DNA from: Escherichia coli
GTDB taxonomy: Bacteria; Pseudomonadota; Gammaproteobacteria; Enterobacterales; Enterobacteriaceae
Assembly (NCBI RefSeq): GCF_046105845.1
Contig: NZ_CP151004.1
DNA: 64,000 nt
Reading direction: 5' to 3' (one strand)
Of this stretch, positions 17,210 to 60,381 are shown piece by piece. Under the pieces are notes generated by a model. That model was given only the letters and a program-made list of their open reading frames with translations, searched no databases and had not been told where the DNA came from. The stretch's first letter is position 1; every line of letters begins with the position of its first letter. The translations under genes and the position numbers were made by a program.

Positions 17210-17569
17210 TTACAGACCTTTATGCGCTAGCATTGGTCCCAGCGGACGGCCACCCAACAAGTGCATATGGATGTGGTAAACCTCTTGTCCGCCGTGGCGG
17301 TTGGTGTTCATGATCAGACGATAGCCATCTTCGGCAATACCTTCTTGCTCAGCAATTTTTGCCGCTACGGTGATCATGCGTCCCAGCGCCTGCTCATGCT
17401 CAGCAGACACGTCGTTCACAGTCGGAATGAGGATATTCGGAATGATCAGAATATGCGTTGGCGCTTGCGGCGAAATATCGCGAAACGCCGTTACCAGATC
17501 ATCCTGGTAGACGATATCGGAGGGGATCTCACGACGAATAATTTTGCTGAATATAGTTTCTTCTGCCAC
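17210..17569 (-). CDS. hinT: HIT-family purine nucleoside phosphoramidase HinT (YcfF)
   Basis: HIT motif HIHMHLLGG; recognised N-terminus [16 protein letters not shown] needs GTG start at 17569 (119 aa). Confidence 0.92.
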
Positions 17570-17777
17570 GACATTTTCCTTTTTCAAATAGCCATGCGTT
17601 GCGCCATGCTACGCCGCGCCACACTGCGAGTATAGAGTATGGTCGAGTTAAACCTGCTCTTTCAACCTTAACTCACGATTTCTTAAGCAAAAAATCGTTT
17701 TGCTGCCGTATATATCGCCATTAATCCCATTTCTGCCTGCGAATGCGCTGAAAAGACATTCTCTGTTTGGTTTACAC

Positions 17778-17812
17778 GATAAATATGAATGCGTATATTT
17801 CTCATTTGCATT
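17778..17812 (+). promoter_or_regulatory. Putative Fur box(es) in fhuE promoter
   Basis: AT-rich hexamer-repeat-like sequence gataaatatgaatgcgtatatttctcatttgcatt ~90 nt upstream of fhuE ATG; partial match to Fur consensus GATAATGATAATCATTATC. Placement approximate. Confidence 0.4.
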
Positions 17813-17902
17813 TACATGCAAAATTATTCGCACACTAAATATAACCGCTCATCATCCTCCTCCGGCATGAGCCTGACGACAACATAAACCAAGAGATTTC
17901 AA

Positions 17903-20092
17903 ATGCTTTCAACACAATTTAACAGGGATAATCAACATCAAACCACCTCCAAGCCGTCACTGCTTGCCGCCTGCATAGTACTGGCACTCTTACCTTCCGC
18001 CGCTTTTGCTGCACCAGCCACTGAAGAAACGGTGATTGTTGAGGGTTCAGCCACTACTCCAGTTGATGACGAAAATGATTACAGCGTAACGTCTACCTCT
18101 GCGGGTACCAAAATGCAGATGACTCAACGTGATATTCCTCAGTCGGTCACTATTGTTAGCCAGCAGCGGATGGAAGATCAGCAGTTACAAACGCTGGGCG
18201 AAGTGATGGAAAACACGCTGGGGATCAGCAAAAGTCAGGCGGATTCCGATCGTGCTCTTTATTATTCCCGCGGATTCCAGATTGATAACTATATGGTTGA
18301 TGGTATCCCCACCTATTTTGAATCGCGCTGGAATCTGGGCGACGCACTTTCTGATATGGCACTGTTTGAACGCGTAGAAGTAGTGCGTGGCGCGACAGGA
18401 CTCATGACCGGGACGGGTAATCCATCTGCGGCAATTAATATGGTTCGAAAACACGCGACCAGTCGTGAATTTAAAGGCGATGTCTCGGCGGAATACGGTA
18501 GCTGGAACAAAGAACGGTATGTGGCGGATTTACAAAGTCCACTCACCGAAGATGGTAAAATCCGCGCGCGAATTGTCGGCGGCTACCAGAATAACGACTC
18601 ATGGCTGGACCGCTACAACAGTAAAAAGACCTTCTTCTCCGGCATTGTTGATGCTGATTTAGGCGATCTTACGACGCTTTCAGCCGGTTACGAATATCAG
18701 CGCATTGATGTTAATAGCCCAACGTGGGGCGGTTTACCGCGCTGGAATACTGATGGCAGCAGCAACAGTTACGATCGCGCACGCAGTACCGCACCTGACT
18801 GGGCGTACAACGATAAAGAGATCAACAAGGTCTTTATGACCCTGAAGCAGCGGTTTGCTGATACCTGGCAAGCGACACTGAATGCCACCCACTCCGAAGT
18901 CGAATTTGACAGCAAAATGATGTATGTCGATGCCTATGTAAACAAAGCGGATGGTATGCTGGTTGGGCCATACAGTAATTATGGACCTGGTTTTGATTAT
19001 GTCGGCGGCACCGGTTGGAACAGCGGCAAACGTAAAGTTGATGCGCTGGATTTGTTCGCTGACGGTAGTTATGAATTGTTTGGTCGTCAGCACAATCTAA
19101 TGTTTGGTGGCAGTTACAGCAAACAAAACAATCGTTACTTCAGTTCATGGGCCAACATCTTCCCGGATGAAATTGGCAGTTTCTACAACTTTAATGGCAA
19201 TTTCCCACAAACCGACTGGTCACCACAGAGTCTGGCGCAGGACGATACCACACATATGAAATCGTTATATGCTGCCACTCGAGTCACCCTTGCCGATCCG
19301 CTGCATCTGATCCTCGGCGCACGTTATACCAACTGGCGGGTTGATACGCTGACTTACAGCATGGAGAAAAACCACACCACGCCTTATGCTGGTTTGGTAT
19401 TTGACATCAATGACAACTGGTCGACCTACGCCAGCTATACCTCTATTTTCCAGCCGCAAAATGATCGTGACAGTTCAGGCAAATATCTGGCTCCAATCAC
19501 CGGTAACAACTACGAGCTGGGTCTGAAATCGGACTGGATGAATAGCCGTCTGACCACCACGTTAGCCATCTTCCGTATTGAGCAGGATAATGTCGCTCAG
19601 TCCACCGGTACACCTATCCCCGGCAGCAACGGCGAAACCGCCTATAAAGCGGTGGATGGGACAGTCAGTAAAGGTGTGGAATTTGAACTCAACGGCGCAA
19701 TTACCGACAACTGGCAGCTGACGTTTGGCGCAACGCGCTATATTGCAGAAGATAACGAAGGAAACGCCGTTAATCCTAATCTGCCACGCACCACGGTTAA
19801 AATGTTCACCAGCTATCGGTTGCCTGTCATGCCAGAGTTGACGGTCGGCGGTGGTGTTAACTGGCAAAATCGCGTGTTTACCGACACCGTGACACCGTAT
19901 GGCACCTTCCGCGCCGAGCAAGGTAGCTACGCGCTGGTGGATCTCTTCACCCGCTACCAGGTGACGAAAAACTTCTCGTTACAGGGGAACGTCAATAACC
20001 TGTTCGACAAAACCTATGATACCAACGTGGAAGGTTCTATCGTCTACGGCGCACCGCGTAATTTCAGCATTACCGGCACGTATCAATTCTGA
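17903..20092 (+). CDS. fhuE: TonB-dependent outer-membrane receptor FhuE (ferric coprogen/rhodotorulic acid)
   Basis: 729 aa, long signal peptide, TonB box ETVIVEG, C-terminal aromatic residue (YQF). Confidence 0.95.
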   Translation: MLSTQFNRDNQHQTTSKPSLLAACIVLALLPSAAFAAPATEETVIVEGSATTPVDDENDYSVTSTSAGTKMQMTQRDIPQSVTIVSQQRMEDQQLQTLGEVMENTLGISKSQADSDRALYYSRGFQIDNYMVDGIPTYFESRWNLGDALSDMALFERVEVVRGATGLMTGTGNPSAAINMVRKHATSREFKGDVSAEYGSWNKERYVADLQSPLTEDGKIRARIVGGYQNNDSWLDRYNSKKTFFSGIVDADLGDLTTLSAGYEYQRIDVNSPTWGGLPRWNTDGSSNSYDRARSTAPDWAYNDKEINKVFMTLKQRFADTWQATLNATHSEVEFDSKMMYVDAYVNKADGMLVGPYSNYGPGFDYVGGTGWNSGKRKVDALDLFADGSYELFGRQHNLMFGGSYSKQNNRYFSSWANIFPDEIGSFYNFNGNFPQTDWSPQSLAQDDTTHMKSLYAATRVTLADPLHLILGARYTNWRVDTLTYSMEKNHTTPYAGLVFDINDNWSTYASYTSIFQPQNDRDSSGKYLAPITGNNYELGLKSDWMNSRLTTTLAIFRIEQDNVAQSTGTPIPGSNGETAYKAVDGTVSKGVEFELNGAITDNWQLTFGATRYIAEDNEGNAVNPNLPRTTVKMFTSYRLPVMPELTVGGGVNWQNRVFTDTVTPYGTFRAEQGSYALVDLFTRYQVTKNFSLQGNVNNLFDKTYDTNVEGSIVYGAPRNFSITGTYQF

Positions 20093-60120: not shown

Positions 60121-60381
60121 TTTTTCCACACTGACATAAACTGACAAATATTTAATCTCCCTTTCATTTAGCGTGAAAAATTGAATGAGATTATTCCTGC
60201 TTCAACAGCACTCACCAGACATCTCTGATGCTGAACCCACTAAACTTATGAAGATTCTTTCATTATTAATTCAAAATTATTGAAATAAAAATAAATATCA
60301 TTCAATTTGTTATTTTTGTGTTGCAATTCATTCTCCGACACGCCATTTTCTTTCTCTCGCAAATTCGTTTTGGATGCACTT

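Follow-up and report, generated by a model that had tools for sequence, protein, structure and literature searches.

The divergent hinT–fhuE locus

The window, as we call the whole 64,000-nucleotide stretch of DNA that was analysed, is a piece of the Escherichia coli chromosome: a 1.2-kb query around the site studied here found matches in 5425 of the 5426 complete E. coli genomes, and every match carries the annotation ycfL-hinT / fhuE. NCBIfam equivalog models identified hinT, fhuE and also ptsG in the window (the features discussed are collected in Table 1), and the divergent hinT-fhuE pair of the original prediction was borne out by these models and by the uniform annotation of the genomes. 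The product of fhuE is the TonB-dependent ferric-coprogen/rhodotorulic acid receptor, and fhuE, a textbook Fur-regulon gene, is the one regulated from the operator described below.

Although the longest hinT reading frame begins at a TTG (17587), both the K-12 annotation and the NCBIfam model favour the GTG at 17569, which corresponds to the start of the 119-residue K-12 protein at 1161885. With hinT starting there, the two genes, hinT on the minus and fhuE on the plus strand, diverge across 17570-17902 (333 bp) and not 17588-17902, so that of the AT-rich 315-bp gap claimed earlier the composition stood (GC content of 41.1% against 51.6% for the whole window, and 31.7% for 17750-17850), while the length had to be corrected. 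The K-12 gap between the same two genes is equally long and differs from that of the window by seven substitutions and no indels. All seven lie outside the 33 bp occupied by Fur, and two of them fall in the spacer of the fhuE promoter (17777, C in the window and T in K-12; 17780, T in the window and C in K-12), which consequently reads GATAAA here and GACAAA in K-12.

Table 1 Features of the hinT–fhuE region (window coordinates).
Feature	Position	Strand	Basis or remark
hinT	17210-17569	-	NCBIfam NF007965, aligned from residue 7 of the longer reading frame; K-12 annotation
Probable hinT promoter, TTGAAA-18-CATACT	17665-17636	-	sigma-70-like; promoter scan and conservation
fhuE -35 hexamer, TTTACA	17771-17776	+	promoter scan
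fhuE Fur operator, AAATATGAATGCGTATATTTCTCATTTGCATTT	17781-17813	+	mapped MG1655 ChIP-exo footprint
Highest-scoring 19-bp Fur PWM match within the gap, GCGTATATTTCTCATTTGC	17791-17809	+	7.28 bits, 15-site PWM
fhuE -10 hexamer, TATATT	17794-17799	+	promoter scan; within the Fur-bound stretch and the nearly invariant block ATGCGTATATTTC
W3110 Fur ChIP-exo peak (13 bp), TTTCTCATTTGCA	17798-17810	+	W3110 record read directly, mapping exact
Decamer ATTTGCATTT	17804-17813	+	common to the Fur-bound regions of tonB and fepA-fes
fhuE	17903-20092	+	ATG 17903; NCBIfam NF007447 equivalog, 1537 bits (cut-off 666)

On the strand of fhuE a single good sigma-70-like promoter was found, TTTACA-17-TATATT (17771-17799), which matches 10 of the 12 consensus positions and has a 17-bp spacer. 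Transcription is predicted to start at 17805-17808, about 17806; a literature search turned up no mapped start for fhuE. The exact 46-mer 17771-17816 is carried by just 3 of the 5426 complete E. coli genomes, and a megablast comparison of operator and flank with 46-mers was uninformative, being confounded by the rare spacer variants of the window and by the 28-base word requirement. A second promoter at 17840-17845, where the window has TATAAC and K-12 a perfect TATAAT, was considered and rejected: no usable -35 hexamer was seen upstream by eye, the promoter scan called nothing there in the window, and the alignment of fhuE upstream regions showed no cross-species conservation of this hexamer. 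An Rfam scan of 17300-18100 at E ≤ 1 returned no RNA family. The predicted 5' untranslated region of fhuE (17806-17920) folds with a small hairpin at 17847-17872 (GCUCAU...AUGAGC), and the fold was insignificant when compared with shuffled sequences (z = -1.21).

Fur motif scores in the gap

The original prediction placed Fur-box-like hexamer repeats, imperfectly matching the consensus, over the fhuE promoter, and proposed a scan with a Fur position weight matrix (PWM) as one way to check it. The imperfection was evident, as the best match in the gap to the Fur consensus GATAATGATAATCATTATC was 11 of 19 positions, a value equalled or exceeded at 314 positions of the window. We trained a symmetric 19-bp PWM on 15 K-12 Fur-controlled intergenic regions from which fhuE was excluded (fepA-fes, fepD-entS, fepB-entC, fhuA, cirA, fecA, fecI, fiu, exbB, fur, tonB, ryhB, sufA, fhuF and feoA); the matrix reproduced the textbook Fur consensus. 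The best site in the gap overlaps the -10 hexamer of the fhuE promoter and scored 7.28 bits, whereas the training sites, scored with leave-one-out, spanned 11-23 bits, the weakest of them reaching 11.05 bits. Thirty positions of the window scored at least as high as the fhuE site, and the maximum score in the gap was not significant against dinucleotide shuffles (P = 0.36). Weaker positive sites phased 6 bp off start at 17785 and 17797 (3.88 and 1.74 bits, respectively), and the three sites taken together as a 6-bp-phased cluster were likewise not significant (shuffle P = 0.14). With three retrained multi-site matrices the fhuE site reached 7.8-8.3 bits, and 29-56 positions of the window scored equally or higher.

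NATWAT hexamers were not enriched, at 6.0 per kb in the gap and 4.7 per kb in the window; the gap holds two exact copies, which overlap each other at 17822-17828. The hexamer repeats are therefore no more than expected by chance, and the PWM scan, with its best gap score below that of the weakest training site, went against the prediction. Scores of this kind depend on the model used. The 24-site information-theory model of Chen et al. 2007 (PMC2189734) gives a 12.4-bit fhuE Fur site at 1160880 in old K-12 coordinates, which falls at about 17796 of the window, and the weakest site of the initial 11-site model of those authors has 11.1 bits (PMC2189734). Since the genuine fhuE operator scores at chance level, a PWM threshold is a poor test for Fur sites, and it was the wrong refutation test for this operator, which is an intrinsically poor consensus match.

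Elsewhere in the window, overlapping Fur PWM hits that outscore the fhuE operator were seen at 60281-60305, about 80-100 bp upstream of yceJ, with 11.1 bits in the 15-site matrix and 13-14 bits in the retrained matrices. Fur ChIP-exo peaks at yceI-yceJ have been reported in E. coli W, KO11 and CFT073, and none in MG1655 (PMC10164565).

Fur occupancy and fhuE repression

Published data obtained with other strains on the identical sequence show Fur occupancy of the fhuE promoter, its iron dependence and Fur-dependent repression. In MG1655, the intergenic ChIP-exo peak P31 (1160863-1160895 in U00096.2) is assigned to fhuE, is bound solely under iron-replete conditions and has a counterpart in the data of Seo et al. 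(as tabulated in Gao et al. 2023, PMC10164565). A shift of +778, obtained by matching the fepD-entS, fiu and fepB-entC peaks to their PWM sites, takes P31 to 17781-17813, a mapping good to about 10 bp. Over these 33 bp the window is 100% identical to K-12, and the exact 33-mer was found in 4370 of the 5426 complete E. coli genomes. The W3110 peak P41 (1163221-1163233, PMC10164565) is narrower; it lies directly 3' of the -10 hexamer and spans the predicted transcription start. The -10 hexamer itself sits within both the PWM site and the MG1655 footprint. Published Fur ChIP data, another check that had been suggested, thus speak for the original prediction: the MG1655 and W3110 peaks, on K-12-identical sequence, place a Fur operator overlapping the -10 hexamer of fhuE within the predicted interval 17750-17900.

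Each of the eight strains with fhuE in Gao et al. 2023 (PMC10164565) showed an intergenic Fur peak assigned to this gene, in seven of them under iron-replete conditions only and in Sakai under both conditions. Deletion of fur raised fhuE expression by a log2 value of 3.0-8.4 across the eight strains, i.e. 8- to 330-fold (PMC10164565). A PfhuE-lacZ fusion was repressed by Fur (PMC4676285), and Fur is the sole regulator listed for fhuE (PMC4145685).

Within 97 kb of K-12 loci (L001-L013), the decamer ATTTGCATTT at the downstream end of the footprint was confined to the control regions of fhuE, tonB and fepA-fes. In the tonB and fepA-fes operators, it is flanked by other sequence and stands at a different distance from the remainder of the site than at fhuE. 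Its recurrence hints, from sequence comparison, that the decamer may be a recurrent non-canonical half-site. The window holds two copies where 0.38 would be expected, the second lying at 29708-29717 on the minus strand.

Conservation, alternatives and the mode of control

A scan for FhuE with one genome per species gave 54 loci in Enterobacterales that range from Escherichia to Rahnella and Pantoea; the identity of FhuE was 55-98%. An alignment was made of 52 distinct upstream regions from more than 15 genera. Nearly all of the upstream sequence has diverged save two blocks. The first is the fhuE promoter-operator, which reads TGTTTACA, a conserved 17-bp spacing and then AATGCGTATATTTC(T/G)CATTTGCATTT; most of its columns are at least 95% identical, and the TTTAC of the -35 hexamer is at least 95% invariant. 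Promoter geometry and conservation are shown by the present analysis. This block was kept in all 13 aligned loci without an adjacent hinT (Kluyvera, Mangrovibacter, Pantoea, Rahnella and an Enterobacteriaceae isolate), and it therefore belongs to fhuE. Where the block changes, it shifts towards the Fur consensus: the orthologous site of Buttiauxella scores 9.9-12.4 bits, and Mangrovibacter has a strong canonical Fur box, ACTAATAGTTATTATTCTC, of 17.0 bits at the same position. The second block lies on the hinT side at about 17625-17690, AAGAGTATGAGCGAGTTA...CTCTTTCAACCTTAAC, and is kept across the genera in which hinT adjoins; TTGAAA-18-CATACT is probably the hinT promoter, judging by the promoter scan and this conservation.

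Two further elements were seen in the aligned regions. In several genera the 5' leader of fhuE carries an additional and stronger canonical Fur box, situated between about -30 and -82 relative to the ATG, e.g. CTTAATATTAATAATTATC (12.4 bits) or AAAAATAATTCTCATTTGA (15.0 bits); it occurs in Citrobacter (L019, L023-L026, L062), in Kluyvera and relatives (L031, L034-L036) and in L067, and is absent from the Escherichia leaders compared. Citrobacter, Kluyvera, Enterobacter, Leclercia, Lelliottia and others (L018-L027, L029, L031, L034-L036, L042-L051, L060, L062, L065) have a 15-bp inverted repeat, TGAAA-N5-TTTCA, e.g. TGAAACAATATTTCA, which lies 5' of the -35 hexamer and precedes the promoter core by about 45-60 bp. 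Its Escherichia version is degenerate (TGAAAAGACATTCTC, 17749-17763 of the window).

From these results, we consider 17781-17813 to be the Fur operator acting on the fhuE promoter, weak-looking and yet deeply conserved, with a probability of roughly 0.93. The scores at chance level and the unenriched NATWAT hexamers would equally be expected if the Fur-like pattern were an accident of AT-rich promoter DNA, with Fur not binding directly and iron acting on fhuE by an indirect route, such as a different factor under Fur control. Such an accident is very improbable, however, given that high-resolution ChIP-exo of eight strains puts Fur at this place, for the most part under iron-replete conditions only, that the independent model of Chen et al. 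marks the same position, and that 10-17 bits are reached at the orthologous position of Mangrovibacter and Buttiauxella. A different question is what the 25-bp block AATGCGTATATTTCTCATTTGCATTT is conserved for. The GCG in ATGCGTAT and other non-consensus bases are kept without change from Escherichia through to Pantoea and Rahnella, which a degenerate Fur motif alone would not require, and the better Fur boxes at about -30 in several genera suggest that in those genera the block is perhaps not the sole Fur control of fhuE. Much of the invariance could stem from core-promoter constraint and not from Fur contacts. The block may thus be kept mainly for a non-Fur role, either as core promoter (-10 hexamer, discriminator and initial transcribed sequence) or for a putative second regulator, with Fur binding superimposed. 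We regard this as rather unlikely, because no regulator other than Fur is listed for fhuE in PMC4145685, the ChIP-exo signal is centred on the block, and the changes in Mangrovibacter and Buttiauxella go towards the Fur consensus; such a role would in any case be compatible with a Fur operator at this position and not opposed to it. As the conservation is stricter than a degenerate Fur motif and a -10 hexamer together require, AATGCGTATATTTCTCATTTGCATTT may encode an extra function, i.e. that of a putative second regulator or of a distinct Fur-binding mode marked by ATTTGCATTT, although we think this quite unlikely.

The divergent arrangement of the two genes, together with a second 'Fur-associated' ChIP-exo peak of MG1655, P32, which is labelled hinT (PMC10164565), might suggest that one Fur site governs both hinT and fhuE. 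Such a bidirectional operator is extremely improbable. The log2 fold change of hinT upon fur deletion is -0.17 in MG1655 (not significant), -0.23 in W and -0.47 in W3110, i.e. expression is nearly constant without Fur, compared with +5 to +6 for fhuE (PMC10164565). P32 falls inside the hinT coding sequence (17478-17511), occurs under both iron conditions and is flagged as missing from the earlier data of Seo et al.; inspection by eye revealed no Fur-like sequence at 17478-17511, and the 25 top PWM hits of the window all lie elsewhere. In addition, the promoter-like element of hinT is about 115 bp away from the operator, and the operator accompanies fhuE at loci without hinT.

Assuming a Fur operator at 17781-17813, a mode of control may be proposed in which the number of Fur dimers, the occlusion mechanism and the exact transcription start are what we infer. 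When iron is sufficient, Fe(II)-Fur would bind 17781-17813, probably as at least two dimers on overlapping sites phased 6 bp, and the bound protein would cover the -10 hexamer and the predicted start, so that RNA polymerase would be excluded and fhuE kept off. When iron is scarce, Fur would dissociate and the TTTACA-17-TATATT promoter would fire, and expression of fhuE would yield the outer-membrane receptor for fungal hydroxamate siderophores. Control would be one-directional, hinT having its own promoter, about 150 bp away, with little or no dependence on Fur.

The fhuE Fur operator is already known, having been predicted earlier and mapped by ChIP-exo, and it belongs to the Fur-box class as a functional site. 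Like the Fur boxes of fhuF, fepB-entC, ryhB and fepD-entS, it lies over the -10 hexamer and the start, shows iron-dependent occupancy and acts as a repressor site; unlike them, it is a much poorer match to the consensus (7.3 bits against 11-23 bits). Sequence scoring alone would miss this genuine, strongly repressing operator, which is outscored by non-target positions within the same 64 kb, whereas phylogenetic footprinting picks out the fhuE element unambiguously.
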